Part shown: piece by piece, positions 3,768-64,000 of the stretch
Layout: every line of letters starts with the position of its first letter
Position numbering within the stretch: position 1 is the stretch's first letter
Assembly (NCBI GenBank): GCA_963733095.1
Contig: CAVTBV010000012.1
Location: 446,279 to 510,278, forward strand
Reading direction: 5' to 3'
DNA: 64,000 nucleotides
From: Candidatus Bathyarchaeota archaeon
GTDB lineage: Archaea; Thermoproteota; Bathyarchaeia; Bathyarchaeales; Bathycorpusculaceae
Notes under the pieces: generated by a model
Database searches by the model: none
What the model was told of the DNA's origin: nothing
What the model saw: the letters and a program-made list of their open reading frames with translations, nothing else
Made by a program: the position numbers and the translations under genes

Positions 3768-4165
3768 CTATGGTTTTTGCATGTGCTCGAGCATGCCAAA
3801 GGTGTTGCCTTCAGGGTCAAGCGCCAGCGCCCACCAACCTAAGCCAGGAATCTCCATCTTTTGTTGGACAATTTTGCCGCCAACGCCTCAACTTTTTTGC
3901 TGCACTCTTCCAAAGACTCCAGAAATATAGTTTATCGGTTTAGCCATCTCGGAAATCGAAGCGTCCTTTTTCTCGTATAATCCACCATTAACACCGGGTC
4001 GCGTCGGCATCATGGTTTTCTCATCCACGGGAACCGTTCCCACAAGATAATAGGTCGTCGGTCCAGGATACTTATTCATCTTCCACCAAACAAATCCATA
4101 TAAAATTTCCTCAATTTCTCAATATCATCTGCGGGTATTTCAAAATGCACAATTGTATGATCCAC
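3768..4165 (-). pseudogene. VOC/glyoxalase family protein, two frameshifts
   Basis: Segments MDHTIVHFEIPADDIEKLRKFY..FG / KMNKYPG..GVNGGL..PINYI / ..KVEALGGKIV..EIPGLGWWALALDPEGNTFGM are joined by frameshifts. Confidence 0.8.
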
Positions 4166-55016: not shown

Positions 55017-56987
55017 CTACATTTTTTCGGGCGAAATCACACCAATGAGGTTTAAGGCGTTATGTATCACAGTTTTTATGGCTTGGGTTAGAGCGATGCG
55101 TGCGTCGCTGAGTTCTTGCGATCCAGCCTTTATCACGGGGTAGGCGTTGTAGAAGGTGTTGAATTTGTCGGCTAAGACGTTGGTGTAGTCGGCTATCATG
55201 TTGGGTTTATAGTATTCTGTGGCTTCGATGAACATGTCGGGGAAACCCGCTAAATTGAGGATGAGTTCACGTTCAAGTTTCTCACTTAGCAAGTCGTAGG
55301 CTGGTTTTTCTGGTTCACGAGCCGCTTTGCGCAGGATGCTGCAGGCTCTTGCATGAGTATACTGAACGTAGGGGGCGCTGTTGGTTTCGAAGTTCAGCAC
55401 TCGTTCCCAAGTGAACACCACAGTTTTGGAAGAATCCACATCCACAAGCGCATAACGCACGGCTCCCAACCCGACGAAGTCGGCGATTTCGCGTTTTTCC
55501 TCCTCCGAGAGCAGAGGGGACCGCTTCGAAACCTCTTCGTAAGCCCGTTGGACCGCTTCGCTTAAGACCTCGTCGAACGTGATGTAGTGCCCCCGTCTAC
55601 TGCTCATCTTGTAACCCGGCAAAGTAACCAAGTTGTAGGCAAAGTGAACCAAATTCTCGGCGTATTCGGGGTATCCCATTGCATAGACAGCAATTTTTAG
55701 CTGCAACTGGGCCAGAGACTGTTCCATGCCGATTACGTTAATGACTTTTTGGGCTTGCTTGAACTTCCAGAGGGTGTAGGCTATGTCGCGAGTGGTGTAG
55801 AGAGTTGTGCCGTCAGCACGTCCTAGAGTCAACGGGGGGACCTCGTTGTTTGGGCTTAAACCTAACTTGGCTTTCAACCCTAAAGTCTGCACAACTTTTT
55901 CCGCATCAAACTCCAACACACCCTTCTCGCTGTAAACAAACGGTGTGGTCTTGAGCTGTGCCATAACATCATTAACTTGCGTACTCCAGACAAAATCGCT
56001 CTCCCAATCCCACGAATCATACGTAACACCAACACGCTTCATGGTTTCCCTAAAACCCTCAAGACACAAATCGCTGACTTCGCGGACAAGTTGCTTTGCG
56101 TTGGGTTCACCGTTCTCGTAGGCGCAGTTTAGGATTTTAATTTCTTCTTCTGGATTTTCGTCTTGGTTAATTTTTGCCGTTAACGCTTCAAAGAGGACAG
56201 GGTATTTTCCTTTGAGTTCAACTGCAATTGACATCCACTCATCAATTTCCTTGTTCGCTTTAACCAAATCTTCAGAGGACTTGGCAGTAATTGCGTTTTC
56301 GCGGGCTTTTTTGAGCCGGTTAATCTCGACTATGCAGCTGGTAACTGTGTAGATTTTGCCCACGAAAAGGTCGGCTTTCTCGGTGGGTTTTGGTCTGCCC
56401 AACTTTGCATACCCGTACGCGACAACCGACGATTGCCGTCCAACATCGTCAATATAATAATGTCGTGAAACTTCGTGTCCCCTGTACTGGAGAATCCGAG
56501 CTAATGCATCGCCCAACATGGGGTTTCTGGCTTGACCAATATGAATAGGATGCAGCGGGTTAACGCTGGTGTGCTCAACAATGATTTTTTTAGGCTGGTC
56601 AGTTTTTACAGACCCATATTCGAACCCTAACTCTTTAATCGACTGCAAGGTTAATGCAGAGAATTTAGCAAAGTCAACATGGAAGTTTATATATCCCGAA
56701 CCTGCCGTAGCAACCTTTTCTATGAGGTTGAAATTGGATTTGTCCACTGCAGCAACAAGTTGCTCAGCTAAATCCAGCGGTTTCTGACCAAGTTTCTTTG
56801 CCAACTCAAAGCACAGCGATGAGGCTAGTTGTCCGTATTCGATGTTTGGCGTTTTGTTTAGTGTGATTACTGGTTGATTTATCTCTGGCAAAGCTTTGTT
56901 TAGCGCTTTTGCCAGTGCAGTTTGGCATTCTTGGCGGAATTGGTCGAATGGATTTTGTGAGACCATTAGCTTTTTCTCCGATTGCAT
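55017..56987 (-). CDS. argS: arginine-tRNA ligase
   Basis: EHTSVNP, HIGQ, RADGTTLYTTRDIAY, KMSSRRG and PYVQYTHARACSI. Confidence 0.97.
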   Translation of the reverse strand: MQSEKKLMVSQNPFDQFRQECQTALAKALNKALPEINQPVITLNKTPNIEYGQLASSLCFELAKKLGQKPLDLAEQLVAAVDKSNFNLIEKVATAGSGYINFHVDFAKFSALTLQSIKELGFEYGSVKTDQPKKIIVEHTSVNPLHPIHIGQARNPMLGDALARILQYRGHEVSRHYYIDDVGRQSSVVAYGYAKLGRPKPTEKADLFVGKIYTVTSCIVEINRLKKARENAITAKSSEDLVKANKEIDEWMSIAVELKGKYPVLFEALTAKINQDENPEEEIKILNCAYENGEPNAKQLVREVSDLCLEGFRETMKRVGVTYDSWDWESDFVWSTQVNDVMAQLKTTPFVYSEKGVLEFDAEKVVQTLGLKAKLGLSPNNEVPPLTLGRADGTTLYTTRDIAYTLWKFKQAQKVINVIGMEQSLAQLQLKIAVYAMGYPEYAENLVHFAYNLVTLPGYKMSSRRGHYITFDEVLSEAVQRAYEEVSKRSPLLSEEEKREIADFVGLGAVRYALVDVDSSKTVVFTWERVLNFETNSAPYVQYTHARACSILRKAAREPEKPAYDLLSEKLERELILNLAGFPDMFIEATEYYKPNMIADYTNVLADKFNTFYNAYPVIKAGSQELSDARIALTQAIKTVIHNALNLIGVISPEKM

Positions 56988-57063
56988 AAGTTAATGCATA
57001 CTTTGGTTAGTTATGTTTTTTAAATGTGAAAGCGCACTTATGTGTCTAATGGATGTAGCACCG

Positions 57064-57912
57064 ATGAAAACAAAAATAGTCTATTCAGAAAAATGTTTAG
57101 GCTATGGTACCTGGCACATTGAAGGGCCCCAGCGGGTAAAAGGGGCGCACGACATTTTGCAGAAGAAGGGTTATGGATTTGTTGAACCAACGCCAGCAAA
57201 CGACGATGATCTTTTATCGGTTCACGATGCTGATTACCTCTTTAACGTGAAAAAAGGCTTAGTTGAAGATTCAGACACACCGGCATACGCAAACATCTAT
57301 GAGTTCGCAAGACTCTCAGTAGGCGGCGCAATCTTAGCCAGTAAAATCAATGGTTTTTCGCTCATGCGTCCTCCCGGTCACCATGTTGGCAGAAGCGGGG
57401 CAGCACTGGGCGTTTATACACGGGGATTCTGTTACTTAAATAACATCGCTATAGCCGTAAAAGAGTCGGGGAAACGTACATTAATCCTAGATATCGATGG
57501 CCACCACGGAAACGGCACGCAAGAAATTTTCCAAGGCGATGAAAAAGTCGTTTATTTGTCGCTTCATCAATCACCCAATTATCCTGGAACGGGTCATTTC
57601 ACTGAGGATAACTGCATAAATTTTGCGTTATCAGGCAATCTGGGAGGAAAAAGATATCTTGAAACCCTCGATAGAGCGTTGAGTATGGTGGATTTGTCAA
57701 AGTTTGAGGCGGTTGCTGTATCCGCGGGTTTTGATACTCATGATGGAGATTTAGCAACTTTGGGCTTAGTCGAACAGGATTACTTTGAGATTGGCAAAAG
57801 AGTTGCGTTCCTCAAGAAACCAGCGTTCTTTGTTCTTGAAGGCGGTTACGTAGGTGAAAAGGTAGGTTTGGATATTGATAGTCTTTTGAGGGGATATGAA
57901 AAGAACTGTTAG
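57064..57912 (+). CDS. histone deacetylase family amidohydrolase
   Basis: RPPGHH, GFCYLNN, DIDGHHGNGT, SAGFD and LEGGY. Confidence 0.9.
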   Translation: MKTKIVYSEKCLGYGTWHIEGPQRVKGAHDILQKKGYGFVEPTPANDDDLLSVHDADYLFNVKKGLVEDSDTPAYANIYEFARLSVGGAILASKINGFSLMRPPGHHVGRSGAALGVYTRGFCYLNNIAIAVKESGKRTLILDIDGHHGNGTQEIFQGDEKVVYLSLHQSPNYPGTGHFTEDNCINFALSGNLGGKRYLETLDRALSMVDLSKFEAVAVSAGFDTHDGDLATLGLVEQDYFEIGKRVAFLKKPAFFVLEGGYVGEKVGLDIDSLLRGYEKNC

Positions 57913-57922
57913 GGAAAAAGGT

Positions 57923-58546
57923 TTATTTTTGTTTTTTTGCGTTTGCCTTTTTATTTAGTTCTTGCAGTTTTTCTGTGATTTTTTCGGATCGTTTTTCGGC
58001 GATGGCTAAGAGTGGTTTCCAATCTTTACTCTTGATGCAGAGAGCTAGTTTTTCTGTTTGAGCAGGTAGGAGGGCTAATGCATCGTTGAAGCGTTTTTCA
58101 GCTGCTTCATCAGATTCTACGATTTCTAAGGCTTCTTCTGGGCAAGCTTCGACACATTTTGGTTCGCCGTCACAAAGGTTGCATGCGATGGCTTTTCCTG
58201 TGTCGGCGTGGATGGTGATTCCGCCGTGGTCGCAGGCTTGAACACACCAGTCGCAGCCTTTACATTTGGATTCATTGATGATTAGTAATCCTGTGCTTTC
58301 TGATTGACTTAGCGCGCGCTCAGGGCATGCTTTTACACATTTAGCGTCGTTGCATCCTCGACAGGTTAAAGCAAAATTGAAGACAGGCGCCATGCGGACT
58401 ACTCGAATTCTGGACCTCAGGGGGTTCCATACACCTTCGCCCTTCTCTACTGTGCAAGCATACTCACAGATACCGCATCCAATGCATTTGCCTGGGTCAA
58501 CTGAAACGAATTTTCTCTGTTGAGTTTTAGCAGACATGGTTACCAA
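57923..58546 (-). CDS. polyferredoxin 4Fe-4S subunit (DmsB/AorA-like)
   Basis: Four Cys motifs: CIGCGICEYAC, CRGC..CVKACP, CKGCDWCVQAC and CNLC..CVEACP. Confidence 0.88.
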   Translation of the reverse strand: MVTMSAKTQQRKFVSVDPGKCIGCGICEYACTVEKGEGVWNPLRSRIRVVRMAPVFNFALTCRGCNDAKCVKACPERALSQSESTGLLIINESKCKGCDWCVQACDHGGITIHADTGKAIACNLCDGEPKCVEACPEEALEIVESDEAAEKRFNDALALLPAQTEKLALCIKSKDWKPLLAIAEKRSEKITEKLQELNKKANAKKQK

Positions 58547-58721
58547 ACCTTTTTGGTGTTAAAGTATCACTGCACACATTGGCTTTTAACCGTTACTTAA
58601 AAAAAACGTCAATCCCATGAAAAAACCATCGACCACCACAGGTATTCCCTGTTAATCGGAAGAAGTCTGATGTTCCCTATGCTAAGGCTTAAGGTTGAAA
58701 AGAGACCTAAGAATGAAAGAT

Positions 58722-58931
58722 TTATTTTGGTTGAGATGGAGGACTCCAGGGCGTTTCAGAATGCAGTTTGCCGCCAGTTGCCCAGTTTTCTCTTGGTATT
58801 TCAACAATCATAACGGTGGTGGCTTGACTTGGAATGCCCATTTCCACAAAGACCTGGGTTATTCCTTCAACGACTTTTTTCTTGTTTTCAGGAGACATTC
58901 CTGCCCAGACAGAAACTTGCACATTCGGCAC
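58722..58931 (-). CDS. 4-oxalocrotonate tautomerase family protein
   Basis: The GTG start at 58931 exposes Pro1 (PNVQV); ..ENWATGG; GGTGA SD. Confidence 0.85.
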   Translation of the reverse strand: MPNVQVSVWAGMSPENKKKVVEGITQVFVEMGIPSQATTVMIVEIPRENWATGGKLHSETPWSPPSQPK

Positions 58932-59454
58932 ATAAATCACCAATTGCTAAAAGACACCGTGGCAAATTAATTTTTTCTAAAAGGCTTGGTTGGTGCGGGT
59001 GGCTGGATTGTTAATGTGCCTTTATGGTTTTTTTCTTTTTGTGTGGGTGTGGTGGAATAATAAATGCACACTACACTTGGGGCTTTGGAAATGGTTGCTT
59101 TTTTAGTTTAGGCTTGTTAGCTAATTCGGTTTTTGTTTGGGAAGAGAGTTTGCCCACACAACTCAACATGGAACCTATGCAGAGTAGTGTGGGTGTGAGT
59201 GTGCAGTATGTTGGGGAACTCTACGTCTTGTTTTCGGCTGTAGGTTTAGAGCAAGAAGCGCTTAATTGGGAGAATCGGGTTTGCTGCTTAAGGGCGCTGA
59301 TTGAGCGTTACAGAAAAAAGCTATAGCATTACTGATTTAGCAACATACATCCAAACGCAAATCAAACCCTAAAATACTAAAATAATAGTGGACCCGATGG
59401 GATATGCCTAATTATTTAAGCGAATCCCTTTATTTTTTCTTAACTACAAAAAGA

Positions 59455-59469
59455 GTGCGGAGGGTGGGA
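59455..59469. repeat. att-like direct repeat of the tRNA 3' end
   Basis: GTGCGGAGGGTGGGA is identical to 63980-63994. Confidence 0.8.
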
Positions 59470-59677
59470 CATCAACCCTATTTTACCGGTAAAACTCCCA
59501 AAATATGCCTTACATTCGAGCGGTAAATCCCGGTAAGCATAGCCGCACAACGGCATACCAAAAAAAGATTAACCGAAGTTCCATGGAAGAAAAGGTCAAG
59601 AAACGATTATTTGGAAAAAAAAGCCAAATTTGGAAATGGCGCGGGATGTTAGGTTTACAAGTATTGTTTGCAGGACC

Positions 59678-59719
59678 GTTTCAGTTTTTGAAACGGTTGT
59701 ATCGGAGTGTCCCTTAACT
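59678..59719 (+). promoter_or_regulatory. islet operator+TATA, copy A
   Basis: GTTTC-N7-GAAAC-N4-GTATC-ggagtgtccc-TTAACT. Confidence 0.75.
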
Positions 59720-59757
59720 TCAGGTTTCACAAATACAATTTGTGAGGCGAAAAAATA

Positions 59758-59988
59758 ATGAACCAAAAAATAAAAGGTGCCTTCATCATAGGAATAGTTC
59801 TATTTTCAGCAGTAGCTTCAATGTGTCTTCTCCCCACTTCCGCTGCCGTTAACGATGATGCTGACCAAACACGCGGCAGAACACAAGATCAAATCCAAGA
59901 TAAAGACTGCTTACAAGACAAAGATTGCAGTTTTGATTGCGCAAGAGACCAAGACCAGCTACGTACTAGGCTACAGATTAGAGATTGA
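59758..59988 (+). CDS. small exported protein with Q/D/R-rich repeats
   Basis: Signal-peptide-like N-terminus; DQTRGRTQDQIQDKDCLQDKDC..RDQDQLRTR. Confidence 0.7.
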   Translation: MNQKIKGAFIIGIVLFSAVASMCLLPTSAAVNDDADQTRGRTQDQIQDKDCLQDKDCSFDCARDQDQLRTRLQIRD

Positions 59989-60123
59989 TGAATGAAAAGC
60001 CTTAAGCTATAAAACAAAAATATCCTCATTTTTTTTAATCCCAAAAAGCAGCTAATCTGAAAAAACAATCTGTAACCTTTAACACCTGTATCTTATCGGC
60101 CAATTTTGATGGGTGAATTGAGC

Positions 60124-60165
60124 GTTTCGGGTTTTGAAATGCTCATTTCAAAGTGTCCCTTAACT
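60124..60165 (+). promoter_or_regulatory. islet operator+TATA, copy B
   Basis: GTTTC-N7-GAAAT-N4-ATTTC-aaagtgtccc-TTAACT. Confidence 0.75.
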
Positions 60166-60200
60166 GGAGGAATAATCAATACTATTGTCGGTGATTTGAA

Positions 60201-61229
60201 ATGCTCAAGAAAACAAAAGTAGCCGCAATAGCAATACTAGCGTCAATTATATTGGCAACAACTCCAGCAATGCTCTTAGCACAAGGACAGGTTCAAACTG
60301 CCCCTGCACAACAGATAGTGACACTCGCTGAAAGAGCAGCACAACAAGTCCAAAACCTAATCGACATGATAAACGCGAACGAGGACGCGCTTGCACAAAT
60401 CGACACCGTTGGCCTCGCAGATGAATTCGATGCGAACGTGACGTTGTACGAGATTGATGGCTTGAAAAAATTGGCAGATGTGCAGGAAGCGCTGACCAAC
60501 GCTAAGTACGAGGACGCAGTGGATTCTGCGGTTGAAGCTTTGAGTATTTTCAGAGAGGTTTACAGTTCAATACATGTTATCATGAAAGCAGCAGACCTGC
60601 AAAGAGATGACTTGATTGAGAATCAAGGACTGCTTGAAGCCATAGCACGCGAACAACAAAGGATCGATCGCCTCAGAGAAATTCTTTCGGTGGATGCGCT
60701 ACAAGACATCTTTGACACCCTTGATGCCACTACAGGACTGTTAAGTGAGGCTAAGACATTAGTGCTTGATGGTGATGTAGATGCGGCGAAGTCCACGTTT
60801 CTTAAAGCCAAAGAAAACATATCAGAAGTCTACGATTACTTGAAGGAGCAGGCTGTGGATTCCAACACTTGGCGACTCTACAACTACTGTGAACAAGCGC
60901 AAGAAAGAATCCGTGAAAGATTCAGATACGGCCAAGATCAAGGTGTCGACTTCACAAGTGTGCTGCAATCTTACGGTTACCAAACTGAAAGCCAATTTAT
61001 GGAAGCCCTCCAGAACCGTACTCAAACAGCCCAAGGCGAACAAAACTTTAGCAATGCCATGCAAGATTGCGACGAAGTCAGCCAAATGGTTCAACAAATG
61101 GAGCAAACGCTTAACCAAGAAATCTATAGACAGCGAGGACAGAATAGCTCTGGGTTCGGCGGCAGTGGCTCCGTCTCTGGCAATGGCGGCAGCGGCTCTG
61201 GCTATGGTGGTAGTGGCGGCGGTCTATAA
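60201..61229 (+). CDS. exported helical protein with Gly/Ser tail
   Basis: Signal peptide MLKKTKVAAIAILASIILA; acidic helical body; GGSG tail. Confidence 0.8.
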   Translation: MLKKTKVAAIAILASIILATTPAMLLAQGQVQTAPAQQIVTLAERAAQQVQNLIDMINANEDALAQIDTVGLADEFDANVTLYEIDGLKKLADVQEALTNAKYEDAVDSAVEALSIFREVYSSIHVIMKAADLQRDDLIENQGLLEAIAREQQRIDRLREILSVDALQDIFDTLDATTGLLSEAKTLVLDGDVDAAKSTFLKAKENISEVYDYLKEQAVDSNTWRLYNYCEQAQERIRERFRYGQDQGVDFTSVLQSYGYQTESQFMEALQNRTQTAQGEQNFSNAMQDCDEVSQMVQQMEQTLNQEIYRQRGQNSSGFGGSGSVSGNGGSGSGYGGSGGGL

Positions 61230-61272
61230 GAATAAAAGGGAAAAATCGTTTCCCAAATTCTCTTTTTTGTTT

Positions 61273-62142
61273 TTATTTCTTGAGTTGAACCCGGTTTTCA
61301 AGACCGATGCGCTTTATTTCAACAAGTTCCAGTCCTTCAAGGCGTCTGACGAGTCTCCAAAGGCTTGTCCTGGGCATGTCTGGAAACCGCTCGCGTATTT
61401 CAGCCTCGAAGGCTTTGCCGTCTTTTTCAGCCAAGAACTCGATTACGGCTATGTCTTCCTTCACTAAATCAGGATGTCGCCTCAGTATCTTTTTGACGTT
61501 AATTGTTTTTTTTCGCCTAACCACAAATATCATAATGAGAATAGCTACTGCGACTACGATTGCTGTAGCGATCAAATATTCGATTGGAATCGCCCATGCT
61601 CCGTTGTTCTGGACTTCCAGCTCCAATGGCACTATATAGCTAAGTTCCCATTGACCTTGATGCAGAGCCAAGGATAATTCCTCGCCAGCTGTGTCTATTG
61701 TAGTTGGCACTTGATTTAGGTATACGATTGTTGAGTTCTTAGGCAATGAGACTGTTAGGTTATAGGGATGATTCAGGATTAGAGTCCATACATCTGCTTC
61801 TTTATTCGTAAGTGCGATAGTATCATATTCAACCGAGACGCGAGAGGCCCCTAAAGTGAAGACAGTAAGATTTACTATGTTTTGCTCGTAGTCTACAGCC
61901 AGTTGATTTTCGTCAAGAACCATCAGGTTTTCAACAGATGAAGATAGAAGAGGCAAGACTACTTCAGGAAGCAGACTATCTACGATTAGAGTTTGTGTGA
62001 CGTGAGTTAGCCCGTCTCTATAAACTTTGATTGTCATGGTTTCGACTTCGAACGAGAACTCAGCTACAGCTGAACTGAATGTCGATAAAAGGAAAAACGT
62101 AAACAGGGCTATGGCGCTGATTCGCAGACAGTAGAGTTTCAT
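61273..62142 (-). CDS. membrane-anchored winged-helix regulator (COG2512-like)
   Basis: Signal peptide, beta-rich ectodomain, TM ending in RRKK, and C-terminal wHTH (EAEIRERF..PRTSLWRLVRRLEGLELVEIKRIG.ENRV). Confidence 0.82.
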   Translation of the reverse strand: MKLYCLRISAIALFTFFLLSTFSSAVAEFSFEVETMTIKVYRDGLTHVTQTLIVDSLLPEVVLPLLSSSVENLMVLDENQLAVDYEQNIVNLTVFTLGASRVSVEYDTIALTNKEADVWTLILNHPYNLTVSLPKNSTIVYLNQVPTTIDTAGEELSLALHQGQWELSYIVPLELEVQNNGAWAIPIEYLIATAIVVAVAILIMIFVVRRKKTINVKKILRRHPDLVKEDIAVIEFLAEKDGKAFEAEIRERFPDMPRTSLWRLVRRLEGLELVEIKRIGLENRVQLKK

Positions 62143-62286
62143 GCGATTTCACATTATATTTGTTTATCTTAGTTAAGATTTTTGTGTATCCTGAATACAG
62201 TTCGAGTGCGTTGGCAAGTTTGAGATAAGCCAGAATTGACATGTGTCCACTGTGGAAGGTTGAAACGCTGAAACACAGATAGGGGT

Positions 62287-62328
62287 GTTCCAATTTTTGA
62301 AACGCTTATTTCAAAATATCCCTTAAGT
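62287..62328 (+). promoter_or_regulatory. islet operator+TATA, copy C
   Basis: GTTCC-N7-GAAAC-N4-ATTTC-aaaatatccc-TTAAGT. Confidence 0.75.
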
Positions 62329-62363
62329 TAGACGTCAATATATATTGTATCTCGTGATTAACG

Positions 62364-63152
62364 ATGAAAACAAGAAGAATAACTAGAAACAAACTCGGCG
62401 CCTTCATCATGGCCTTAATGATCGTTGCATATATTGTACCTCTGTGTGCAGCCGTCGGTGGTTCTGGGGAAACTTCGGGCGATGGCAAATACCCAGAAGT
62501 ACCCGGTGCCCCTGACAATGCAGTGCAATACAACAAAACCGACACTACACCCGTAGCCGAAATGGCGCAAGTTGCTGTCGGAGAACCCGCACTATTTCAA
62601 TATAGAAATATGACTATGCTGATGAATTGCTCAAAGAACTGCGAGGTAATCTTCTCTGCAGACCCAGACGTAACACCCAAGATCTTAGGGCTATCCGTGG
62701 AACCCAATCAGACAATGACACTTACTATGAACATGTACGGCTCTCCGCTTCAAGGCGAACAGGTTATGGAGCGAACTTTGAATTTCTACTTAGGAATAGA
62801 GCCAAACGCTGAATTACAGTTAACGGCGCAGATAAAATTACACATCAACCAGACAGGGCTAAGTCAAGAGCTAAACAGAGAAGTTAACGCCTCAAGACTC
62901 ACATGGATGTATTGGAACACGACACAAGCACAATGGGTGCATGTTGAAAGCGTCATTGACCAAAACGGTTACCTAGTATGCAACACTGACCACTTCTCAA
63001 CCTGGACCGTAGCAGAACTCGCAGATACAACAGAACCCTTAACCGATACGACCCAGAGTGGAATGCCAGTCGAATACCTCTACATAGGAACTGCAGTAAT
63101 CGCCATAGTCGTGGTCGTAGCCGGAGTATTCGCGTTCAAGAAACATAAATGA
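62364..63152 (+). CDS. cell-surface protein with C-terminal membrane anchor
   Basis: Signal peptide; YWN..W..TDHFSTW; Thr-rich linker; TM followed by KKHK. Confidence 0.8.
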   Translation: MKTRRITRNKLGAFIMALMIVAYIVPLCAAVGGSGETSGDGKYPEVPGAPDNAVQYNKTDTTPVAEMAQVAVGEPALFQYRNMTMLMNCSKNCEVIFSADPDVTPKILGLSVEPNQTMTLTMNMYGSPLQGEQVMERTLNFYLGIEPNAELQLTAQIKLHINQTGLSQELNREVNASRLTWMYWNTTQAQWVHVESVIDQNGYLVCNTDHFSTWTVAELADTTEPLTDTTQSGMPVEYLYIGTAVIAIVVVVAGVFAFKKHK

Positions 63153-63977
63153 CCGCAAACAAGTAACTCTCTCCTTTTTCCTTTTTTTATTTATCCATTT
63201 ACCCTCGCGTCATAGTTAATCCAGCCATTTTTGTAAGGGCATAGAATGCGATTCTCGCTGTGACAGAACCATTTTCCTGTGAAGTAAACCAGCATAACTT
63301 CAACAACAATAAACACGAACGCTACTTAGTCACCGCTTAACAGAACAGTATTAACTTAAGCCCAAACACACCAGCAAACCAAGCAACAAGAAGAGAAATT
63401 GCTTAACCGCTAACTTTAGGTTAAATTACTCCCATTTTCCGCTACTTTACGTAAACTCTATCTGAACAACTCGGCAATCCACGCACAAGATCCTGAGAAT
63501 CTTAGAAACTGGACTTTCATGGGTATCTTTGGTGTAGTGACGAGTTTCCTTCTTACACGCAGGACCCACGAACCGCCCTGCAAAGTGCGCATCAGCTTGA
63601 TTCAATAAAATTGCTCTCGCCATTCTATTAAAAGTACGAGGGTTCAAATCAGTCCACTGCCTAATTGCCAAAATAACACACGCTAAAACCTCAAACAAGT
63701 GAAGTAGTTTTGGCTCTCACCAAAATTAAGTGGATTCGAACCAAAAATGGTTTAGGTCTCTACCGGGTTTAGCCCTCAGCGGGTATTAGCCCAAATAAAT
63801 GAGTCTGTTCCTTAAATCAAAAACAAGCAATTAACCCAAATTGAAGAATAATGAAGAGAGCTCAGCAAAGAGGCAAACATTTTTGCCGGTAAACTTTTGT
63901 TCAATTTTTAGCTTTCTCACATAAAACTATAAATTGAGTTTATTTTGTCAAATTAAGCTTAAAATAAGCTTGAATTT

Positions 63978-64000
63978 TGGTGCGGAGGGTGGGATTTGAA
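63978..64000 (-). tRNA. 3' end of a tRNA, probably tRNA-Leu (partial)
   Basis: Minus strand reads TTCAAATCCCACCCTCCGCACCA: T-loop, 3' acceptor strand CCTCCGC, discriminator A and CCA. The anticodon is outside the window. Confidence 0.75.

Follow-up and report, generated by a model that had tools for sequence, protein, structure and literature searches.

How, in the absence of two-component systems, do archaea pass extracellular events on to transcription? A cluster of four genes bears on this question. It is located in a stretch of 64,000 nucleotides (nt) from a Candidatus Bathyarchaeota archaeon (contig CAVTBV010000012.1, positions 446,279 to 510,278), hereafter called the window; in our numbering the genome holding it is G000 and the window is G000:C12:446279-510278, its right edge being the end of the contig. 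Three of the genes lie on the plus strand, are each preceded by the same promoter element and encode proteins that we call P76, P342 and P262. The N-termini of all three are signal-peptide-like, as a preliminary description of the window had stated: by eye, each contains a stretch rich in lysine or arginine, a hydrophobic run and small residues. The fourth gene, on the minus strand, encodes a transmembrane winged-helix protein. We consider it probable that this protein is a transmembrane one-component regulator with a local regulon of exported proteins and an extracellular partner, its DNA binding, for which comparison with relatives speaks, and the direction of regulation being what we infer.

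The preliminary description had reported the shared promoter as a GTTYC-N7-GAAAY repeat followed by a TTAA box and occurring nowhere else in the window. Searching with GTTYC-N3-TTTTGAAAY-N4-RTWTC-N2-ARTRTCCCTTAA we found matches without any mismatch at 59678-59717, 60124-60163 and 62287-62326, all on the plus strand, and the distance from the first G to the start of TTAA is, as described, exactly 36 nt in all three copies. Allowing up to three mismatches added no match in the window, and 100 shuffles likewise gave zero. Nor is the element common genome-wide: a search of the 2,835,923 bases of G000 with a less strict pattern of 40 nt, in which at most two mismatches were permitted, returned only the same three sites, and a reversed-pattern control over this genome had no match. 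In an alignment the three copies (A, B and C in the order of their positions) resemble one another over approximately 67 nt. The gap from the end of TTAA to the ATG measures 40 nt for the gene at 59758 and 37 nt for the genes at 60201 and 62364. Copies B and C are followed by a Shine-Dalgarno sequence of the GGTGA type, 6-8 nt 5’ of the ATG; it recurs at the sites of relatives and accounts for the second patch of conservation.

The internal structure of the element differs from the one first proposed. Instead of a single N7-spaced repeat there are two 14-bp palindromes in tandem (GAAAY-N4-RTTYC, 21 bp from centre to centre), and a nearly invariant box, GTGTCCCTTAA, follows. The GTTYC at the upstream side belongs to the distal palindrome as its right half, and GTTYC-N7-GAAAY thus joins this half to the left half of the proximal palindrome. 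With the distal palindrome included the element measures about 49 nt through the end of TTAA, for which the earlier figure of 42 bp was too short. Given a centre spacing of 21 bp, both palindromes would be on the same face of the helix. The proximal palindrome ends 10 nt before TTAA.

To define sites in relatives we required a box with at most one mismatch and proximal half-sites in which 6 or more of the 10 positions match, and scanned 80 named loci and the window. A relaxed regular expression applied to the long-type loci had been too noisy (28 matches against 17 in controls); therefore only matches with the GTGTCCCTTAA box were kept, and then this anchor-based rule was adopted. It detected 111 distinct sites in the 81 loci and none in the reversed or complemented sequence. 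At least one site is present in 63 of the 81 loci, and in several of the remaining 18 a site can be seen whose proximal half-sites fall below the rule. The consensus of the 111 sites is tGAAA-N4-GTTTCa-N2-tTTT-GaAAc-GcTt-gTttC-a-N-AGTGTCCCTTAA, in which CCCTTA is invariant or nearly so. The distal palindrome had been left out of the selection rule, but it is conserved all the same (right half G74 T90 T100 T72 C92 of 111). Regulators at these loci are 29–92% identical to the protein of the window, and the element is kept even where the regulators share only 29–60% identity and the flanks are unalignable. Judging from these alignments, the element is conserved beyond neutral expectation. Cluster and element are conserved jointly across Bathyarchaeia, so that the element does occur next to homologues of the regulator. 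In two records from Culexarchaeia and one titled Nitrososphaeria (L085, L121, L093), too, the P342-like neighbour has related elements in front of it.

The layout in relatives comprises a site with a small open reading frame (ORF), a site with a P342-like gene, the regulator gene on the opposite strand, and a site with a P262-like gene. Sites precede the P262-like gene, which is divergent, as well as the convergent P342- and P76-like genes. An ORF follows 110 of the 111 sites. By a crude rule 95 of these 110 ORFs are signal-peptide-like; among control ORFs of 150 amino acids (aa) or more in the same loci, 236 of 573 pass the rule.

The distribution of the element among genomes follows that of the regulator gene. 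In a draw of 41 genomes the gene was found in 6 of 24 same-genus genomes, all 6 with adjoining sites. One of the 18 same-genus genomes without the gene has a match, an unrelated sequence with two mismatches that is also present inside an ORF of G000. In a draw of 301 genomes from the class, 12 of 48 genomes of family f1 contain the gene and all 12 contain sites, whereas two of the 36 genomes without the gene carry one site each, located at a contig edge in G327 and without an ORF behind it in G188. In family f7 the gene is present in 8 of 12 genomes, all 8 with sites, and there is a doubtful match in G132. The reversed pattern matched twice in all 301 genomes. In families f1 and f7 the element is almost confined to genomes with the regulator gene. 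Distant homologues of the regulator were detected in 135 of the 301 sampled Bathyarchaeia genomes (E ≤ 1e-5), mostly without the exact box; in family f24 they are present in 66 of the 71 genomes sampled. The orphan site of G188 (L123, on G188:C8) ends at 4079 and is well formed.

Sites also occur away from the regulator gene. On other contigs or at remote positions they precede homologous ORFs of 64–73 aa with signal-peptide-like N-termini in five genomes (G007, G040, G191, G170, G244). The peptides share two repeats of the GPAPNSGDGIPDGSGF type and a DGSGF end; the genomes span two families, and in G318 the start position is ambiguous. No such gene was found in G000 by tblastn, and here P76 fills the slot of the small exported protein. 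A different arrangement was seen in G022, which has two clusters. In the first (L039, on G022:C45) the regulator gene is broken by several stops, the P342 and P262 ORFs are intact, and the sites have 0 and 3 mismatches; the second (L028, on G022:C16) provides an intact regulator on the other contig without a P342-like neighbour. The tie between element and cluster suggested earlier therefore extends to relatives, where gene and element travel together, unlinked loci included.

A further line of evidence comes from diverged members of the family, for which we compared recognition helix, wing and box; seven loci gave no match to the helix pattern. The helix PRTSLWRL and the wing GLEN accompany the GTGTCCCTTAA box invariantly in all main-type and long-type sequences recovered (67 loci and the window). 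A long-type cluster is found in the record of Ca. Bathyarchaeum tardum (L103). Paralogues with RTTTW and the wing RRQN (L038, L118) are associated with three TTTYC repeats at 10-bp spacing that run into GGGTTTCCTAAA, and this variant precedes both flanking exported-protein genes. Paralogues with KSTTW and GGQN (L036, L037) are found with GGAAC/GAAAC-N4-GTTCC plus GGGTTCTTAA. By their record titles, L043 and L118 belong to the same isolate, so that a single metagenome-assembled genome (MAG) contains two variants. As far as these sequence comparisons go, diverged paralogues carry diverged boxes.

The regulator gene is, as first described, divergent from copy C. The order signal peptide, ectodomain, transmembrane segment and winged helix proposed for its product agrees with an AlphaFold2 model (22 aligned relatives; mean predicted local distance difference test score, pLDDT, 84.7) and with a structure search. 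The model comprises an N-terminal hydrophobic helix (residues 2-20), a beta-sandwich (31-170), a low-confidence linker and a long helix (187-209), followed by a winged-helix unit at 216-287 with helices 216-222, 228-239, 246-252 and 258-270 and strands 243-245, 274-279 and 282-287. Residues 214-289 match solved winged helices of TFE-alpha/TFIIE, PerR, RosR, MecI and MarR with Z-scores of 10–11.2 and root-mean-square deviations (rmsd) of 1.1–2.5 Å over 62–77 residues; the best match is the winged helix of TFE-alpha (Z 11.2, rmsd 1.4 Å, 74 residues aligned). The topology of two helices, strand, two helices and wing thus superposes on solved DNA-binding domains, which identifies the fold as a winged helix-turn-helix. 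By eye and in the model, the N-terminus starts with MKLYCLR and a hydrophobic run and continues with AVA-EF, and the transmembrane helix is followed by RRKKTINVKK. Both this start, which resembles a signal peptide, and the basic residues behind the membrane helix argue for a type-I membrane protein (N-terminus outside, C-terminus inside) with a predicted cytoplasmic winged helix. The closest named records are Bathyarchaeia MAGs with regulators 92% (L043) and 90% (L044) identical. In agreement with the earlier remark that no operator or regulon is described, a literature search for DUF7343 and for COG2512, a label taken over from the preliminary description, found no account of the family or of its operator. 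The accessible part of one paper (PMC4158269), whose supplementary arCOG tables could list the regulator family, does not mention it.

The modelled ectodomain (28-174) is most similar to human ribophorin I (6s7o_E; Z 11.8, rmsd 2.9 Å, 146 residues), the F3 aminopeptidase (1z1w_A; Z 11.7) and yeast Ost1 (6c26_1; Z 11.6). It is thus equally close to the lumenal domain of ribophorin I/Ost1 and to the N-terminal domains of M1 aminopeptidases (Z 11.6–11.8), at 11–12% identity. The regulator gave no match to Ribophorin_I (Pfam PF04597) at E ≤ 1. A sequence-profile search of solved structures returned nothing below E 0.09. As a side reading, the modelled ectodomain might be a true relative of eukaryotic ribophorin I, which likewise is a type-I membrane protein with a similar ectodomain fold but has no DNA-binding domain. 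A common beta-sandwich proves neither shared descent nor function. We also noticed P-[IV]-E-Y at the outer edge of the transmembrane segment in both the regulator (residues 184-189) and P262 (residues 234-238), and one ORF of the exosortase/archaeosortase family in the genome (G000:C1:33047-33844). Reading the motif as a sorting signal was dropped, since it is found in some P262 relatives only.

A candidate partner of the ectodomain is encoded next door. Complex predictions for residues 28-176 of the regulator and 33-318 of P342 reached scores of 0.85, 0.86 and 0.86, against 0.02 for the best of three controls, with 136–144 contacts, a partner pLDDT of 90 and 95% or more of the contacts shared between runs. 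The best-defined contacts involve residues 82-85 and 95-97 of the ectodomain and 211-229 of P342. Among the pairs used for calibration, 58 of 80 solved complexes and 2 of 110 mismatched pairs attained this mark, figures that are only rough for user-supplied alignments. No similar solved complex is known to us, and it thus seems unlikely that the model had merely memorised one. On both chains the interface is better conserved than the remaining positions (permutation p = 0.0098 and 0.0032), and P342-like genes adjoin the regulator in every subfamily examined. Moreover, distant homologues carry a helical insert in their ectodomain, and the P342 profile matches this insert (hhalign probability 84%, E 7.5e-6). 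These models support binding of the ectodomain to the adjacent secreted P342 and, by analogy, suggest a loop of the CpxP or ToxS type.

Where the element is located relative to the core promoter bears on the direction of regulation. A k-mer profile upstream of 321 ORFs with Shine-Dalgarno support was too noisy to define the TATA box. Therefore 41 tRNA promoters of G000 were used to derive a matrix for the B recognition element (BRE) and TATA box, with the consensus aacaGaAAagTTTAaa (G-W-A-A, two bases, TTTAWW) and a median best score of 9.7 bits. Compared with the purine-rich BRE of this matrix, the GTGTCC that precedes TTAA is purine-poor, as had been pointed out in the preliminary description. 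No offset in the 111 sites fits the matrix consistently. The sequences starting at TTAA in long-type and distant loci resemble TATA boxes of the genome (CTTAATTTAA, CTTATTAAAATA). If the TATA box begins at TTAA, the place of the BRE is taken by GTGTCC, and the core promoter is immediately preceded by the palindromes. The regulator's own promoter, in contrast, appears near-canonical (Table 1), and because the targets have GTGTCC in place of a BRE we favour activation; most likely, the regulator activates from just upstream of the core promoter. Between the regulator gene and element C (62142-62286), TGAAACGCTGAAAC at 62261-62274 forms an extra pair of direct half-sites, which is retained in the closest relatives L043 and L044. 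It could be an autoregulatory site.

The mechanism that we propose is as follows. The 289-aa protein would expose its beta-sandwich outside and its winged helix inside the membrane. Probably as a dimer or higher oligomer, it would bind both GAAAY-N4-RTTYC palindromes and the adjoining GTGTCCC box. The bound sites would be located directly upstream of the TATA-like TTAA at promoters of exported proteins, three of them in the window and others at the unlinked small-peptide genes of relatives. From there the regulator would most likely activate transcription as ArnR, Ptr2 and EarA do. Its ectodomain would clasp P342, the secreted product of its most conserved target gene, and would thereby complete a feedback loop like those of CpxP-CpxA or ToxS-ToxR. 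DNA binding, activation, oligomeric state, the signal and the binding of P342 in the cell are all steps that we infer. Of the original interpretation, the specificity of the element, the joint travel of gene and element and the purine-poor BRE were borne out, the type-I topology is a supported prediction, and activation and DNA binding keep the standing of interpretation that they had. With regard to the extracellular cue, P342 is the only partner that we can propose.

The same protein and sites could also serve repression, which we regard as rather unlikely. The proximal palindrome GAAAC-GCTT-RTTTC would then be a weak BRE/TATA, and binding there and at the box, which would lie between TATA and the start site, would shut the promoters until an outside signal arrives or the binding of P342 is lost. 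Many archaeal winged-helix regulators are indeed repressors whose sites overlap BRE/TATA or the start site, and the GAAAC half-site is the BRE-like part of several tRNA promoters of G000. The proximal palindrome is also the only register in which the matrix scores with any consistency (at offset -32 the mean is -0.3 bits, 13% of the 111 sites have 6.3 bits or more, and for 25 of them no other position scores higher), and copy C reaches 9.3 bits in it, near the tRNA median. Copies A and B, however, score only -1.2 and 2.0 bits, and the majority base of the right half is G (GTTTC), to which the TATA matrix gives 0.01. Repression from this register would furthermore leave the distal palindrome without explanation, and it disagrees both with the TATA-like reading of the TTAA-start sequences in long-type and distant loci and with a near-canonical promoter at the regulator gene but not at the targets. 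It is improbable, too, that another factor reads the element, be it a specialised TFB whose BRE is GTGTCCC or a soluble regulator encoded at an unlinked locus. In that case the membrane protein would be a mere member of the island, its winged helix perhaps serving protein contacts. TFBs are universal, yet the sites in f1 and f7 occur almost only together with the gene, and the box variants follow those of recognition helix and wing, two of them within one MAG. The winged helix also has the full DNA-binding topology, with DNA-binding domains as its nearest structures. What speaks for such a factor is that the element varies least in the box beside TTAA, where the BRE would lie, and that G000 has four TFB-type ORFs (8 cyclin-repeat matches), so that the box could be read by a specialised paralogue. 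G188 retains a site without the regulator gene, but this site is followed by no ORF and resembles a relic.

Very improbable is a third reading, in which the repeats are not operators and represent recent promoter duplicates or an element acting at the RNA level, e.g. leader hairpins. Each palindrome could fold a 5-bp hairpin if transcribed, and the three copies fall within 2.7 kb. Conservation of the element at 29–60% protein identity between unalignable flanks contradicts this, as does the variation of the half-sites, which is asymmetric (symmetry holds in 63 of the 111 sites for pair 2 and in 55 for pair 5, with A-C, T-T and C-A frequent), shows no compensatory pattern and thus fits protein binding over an RNA hairpin. 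In addition, Rfam gave no match at E ≤ 1 across 56000-64000, and no canonical promoter was found farther upstream of copies A and B. Together with the matrix scores at the proximal palindrome and the TFB paralogues, the following points weigh against an activating membrane regulator. Linkage explains part of the co-occurrence, since the gene moves together with its neighbours in a single island; the only exceptions are G022 and the peptide sites at unlinked loci, and related genomes are not independent samples. G188 is 99% complete and has a good site with no detectable regulator gene. The covariation among subfamilies rests on about 3–4 independent divergences, and the complex is a prediction from alignments that were small (22 and 15 rows) and unpaired. 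The assignments of signal peptides and topology were made by eye and with the help of the model. Finally, the regulator scores 16.7 bits against DUF7343 (Pfam PF24034; E 0.0067; residues 228-287, profile positions 3-61 of 62), below the gathering cut-off of 27.6. All 22 aligned relatives match the profile at E ≤ 0.01 (best 1.1e-07), some of them also HTH_24, MarR_2, IclR and TrmB; the protein is therefore DUF7343-like and not a certified member.

Several known systems resemble the proposed regulator in part. ToxR-ToxS, TcpP-TcpH and CadC are bacterial transmembrane one-component regulators with an N-terminal cytoplasmic winged helix of the OmpR type and a C-terminal periplasmic domain. In these, as proposed here, a single-pass protein couples an outside sensor directly to a winged helix, and the sensor is bound by a small outside partner whose gene lies next door, comparable to the predicted P342 complex. 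The domain order, in contrast to ToxR and CadC, is reversed, and the transcription machinery is that of archaeal TBP and TFB. CpxP is a secreted all-helical protein encoded beside the CpxA sensor; it is under the control of this sensor and binds its outside domain, and Cpx as a whole is a two-component phosphorelay. The logic proposed for P342, target and partner of the adjacent sensor at once, is similar, but here sensor and DNA-binding domain form one polypeptide. As P342 gave no specific fold match, no relation to CpxP is claimed. Among archaeal activators, Ptr2 and TFB-RF1 use sites immediately upstream of BRE/TATA at BRE-poor promoters. For EarA, a deletion within the BRE part of the promoter is reported to make the activator dispensable (PMC5512572). 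As far as these sources go, the present sites share with Ptr2, TFB-RF1 and EarA the position directly upstream of a core promoter with a poor BRE, and differ in sequence and number; the three activators are soluble and belong to other families.

The closest architecture is that of ArnR and ArnR1 of Sulfolobus acidocaldarius, which are membrane-bound one-component activators of the archaellum promoter. The target is reported to consist of two inverted-repeat boxes, TCGAC-N5-GTCGA, at -43 to -84, upstream of BRE/TATA and both required for binding, and the protein order is an N-terminal HTH, a cytoplasmic HAMP-like and sensing domain and two C-terminal transmembrane segments, with no sizeable ectodomain (PMC6396743). 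The likeness concerns architecture only, namely a membrane-anchored archaeal factor and two inverted repeats just upstream of BRE/TATA; the ArnR targets are cell-surface structures. Unlike ArnR, the regulator has a signal peptide, a 150-aa ectodomain, one transmembrane segment, a C-terminal winged helix and other half-sites. Pfam scans of the regulator and 22 relatives gave no match that would indicate a relation to ArnR or a HAMP domain, and none to the OmpR-type Trans_reg_C. The regulator thus differs from known transmembrane one-component regulators in domain order, sensor fold, operator and predicted secreted target-partner.

In our literature search ArnR was the sole membrane-bound archaeal transcription factor found with a studied binding site. 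The present analysis, made from sequence alone, yields an operator architecture, a small regulon of exported proteins only, operator variants by subfamily and a predicted outside partner, all of which are testable. To our knowledge, very few archaeal regulators have a known operator. If the regulator does activate with its own box at the BRE position, it would offer a clean system for studying how an archaeal activator recruits TFB and TBP. The locus might even be a self-contained envelope circuit, in which a type-I factor held or released by its own secreted target P342 replaces the BRE contact to TFB and the P76 and GPAPNSGDGIPDGSGF peptides act as autoinducers; we think this quite improbable, and if true it would mean peptide-based cell-to-cell signalling in Bathyarchaeia. 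The features discussed are collected in Table 1.

Table 1. Locations of the genes, promoter elements and related features. Positions without a prefix refer to the window.
Feature	Location	Strand	Description
Promoter element A	59669..59717	+	Distal palindrome 59669-59682 (left half degenerate, right half GTTTC); proximal GAAAC-GGTT-GTATC 59690-59703; box GTGTCCCTTAA 59707-59717
Promoter element B	60115..60163	+	Distal GAATT-GAGC-GTTTC 60115-60128; proximal GAAAT-GCTC-ATTTC 60136-60149; box 60153-60163
Promoter element C	62278..62326	+	Distal GATAG-GGGT-GTTCC 62278-62291; proximal GAAAC-GCTT-ATTTC 62299-62312; box ATATCCCTTAA 62316-62326
Transmembrane winged-helix protein, 289 aa	61273..62142	-	Signal peptide 1-~27, ectodomain 28-176, transmembrane segment 187-209, winged helix 214-289, recognition helix PRTSLWRLVRRLE
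Near-canonical BRE/TATA TACACAAAAATCTTAA	62173..62188	-	46 nt upstream of the regulator's own ATG; 7.7 bits (tRNA median 9.7)
P76, 76 aa	59758..59988	+	Asp/Gln-rich, four Cys, signal-peptide-like N-terminus; no family match
P342	60201..61229	+	Secreted, all-helical (tandem helical bundles), Gly/Ser-rich tail; recurrent neighbour of the regulator in all subfamilies examined
P262	62364..63152	+	Signal peptide, domain of unknown fold, C-terminal transmembrane anchor ending KKHK; conserved in main-type clusters
Twin-repeat peptide	L040 3253-3492	-	Behind element, remote from regulator gene
Twin-repeat peptide	L041 3943-4149	+	Behind element, remote from regulator gene
Twin-repeat peptides	L125, L126, L128		Behind element, remote from regulator gene
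TFB-type ORF	G000:C12:408839-409387		Cyclin-repeat matches
TFB-type ORF	G000:C11:16815-17366		Cyclin-repeat matches
TFB-type ORF	G000:C13:372901-373452		Cyclin-repeat matches
TFB-type ORF	G000:C5:41861-42409		Cyclin-repeat matches

Pfam and NCBIfam returned nothing meaningful for P76, P342 and P262. At the position of P76, L029 and L032 contain ORFs that are 37–38% identical to it. In the ESM Atlas, P342 and P262 matched hypothetical Bathyarchaeota clusters only; one cluster at rank 12, with PGF-CTERM in 25% of its members, is a lead only. The P342 model is all-helical (pLDDT 79.5), and its fold search retrieved generic helical bundles only, the best with Z 11.6, below the caution line of about 13 for helical proteins. 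Metatranscriptome contigs cover P342 at 60206-60692 (X21, about 97–98% identity) and 60241-61123 (X24) and P262 at 62579-63091 (X24 only). In contigs from RNA libraries DNA may be present, and neither starts nor levels can be read from them. None from X21 or X24 covers the regulator gene or P76 or reaches a 5’ untranslated region, and given what such contigs can tell, nothing is concluded from these gaps.

An exact direct repeat of 15 nt, GTGCGGAGGGTGGGA, at 59455-59469 and 63980-63994 brackets the four-gene cluster, and a third copy, 80% alike, is located at 58990-59009. The copy on the right, where the contig ends, resembles the 3’ terminus of a minus-strand tRNA gene. Between the repeats we found no integrase, and ARAGORN detected no tRNA in the window. 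In relatives the cluster has differing genomic contexts, and within the genus it is patchy; because of this variation it may be a present or past mobile cassette inserted at a tRNA gene. Concerning transcription in G000 more generally, promoter classes served by different TFBs may exist. A tRNA-Cys gene with an identical 70-nt upstream region occurs on two contigs (G000:C10:9925-9998 and C11:2-75, one of them at a contig end), and this duplicate is probably an assembly overlap.

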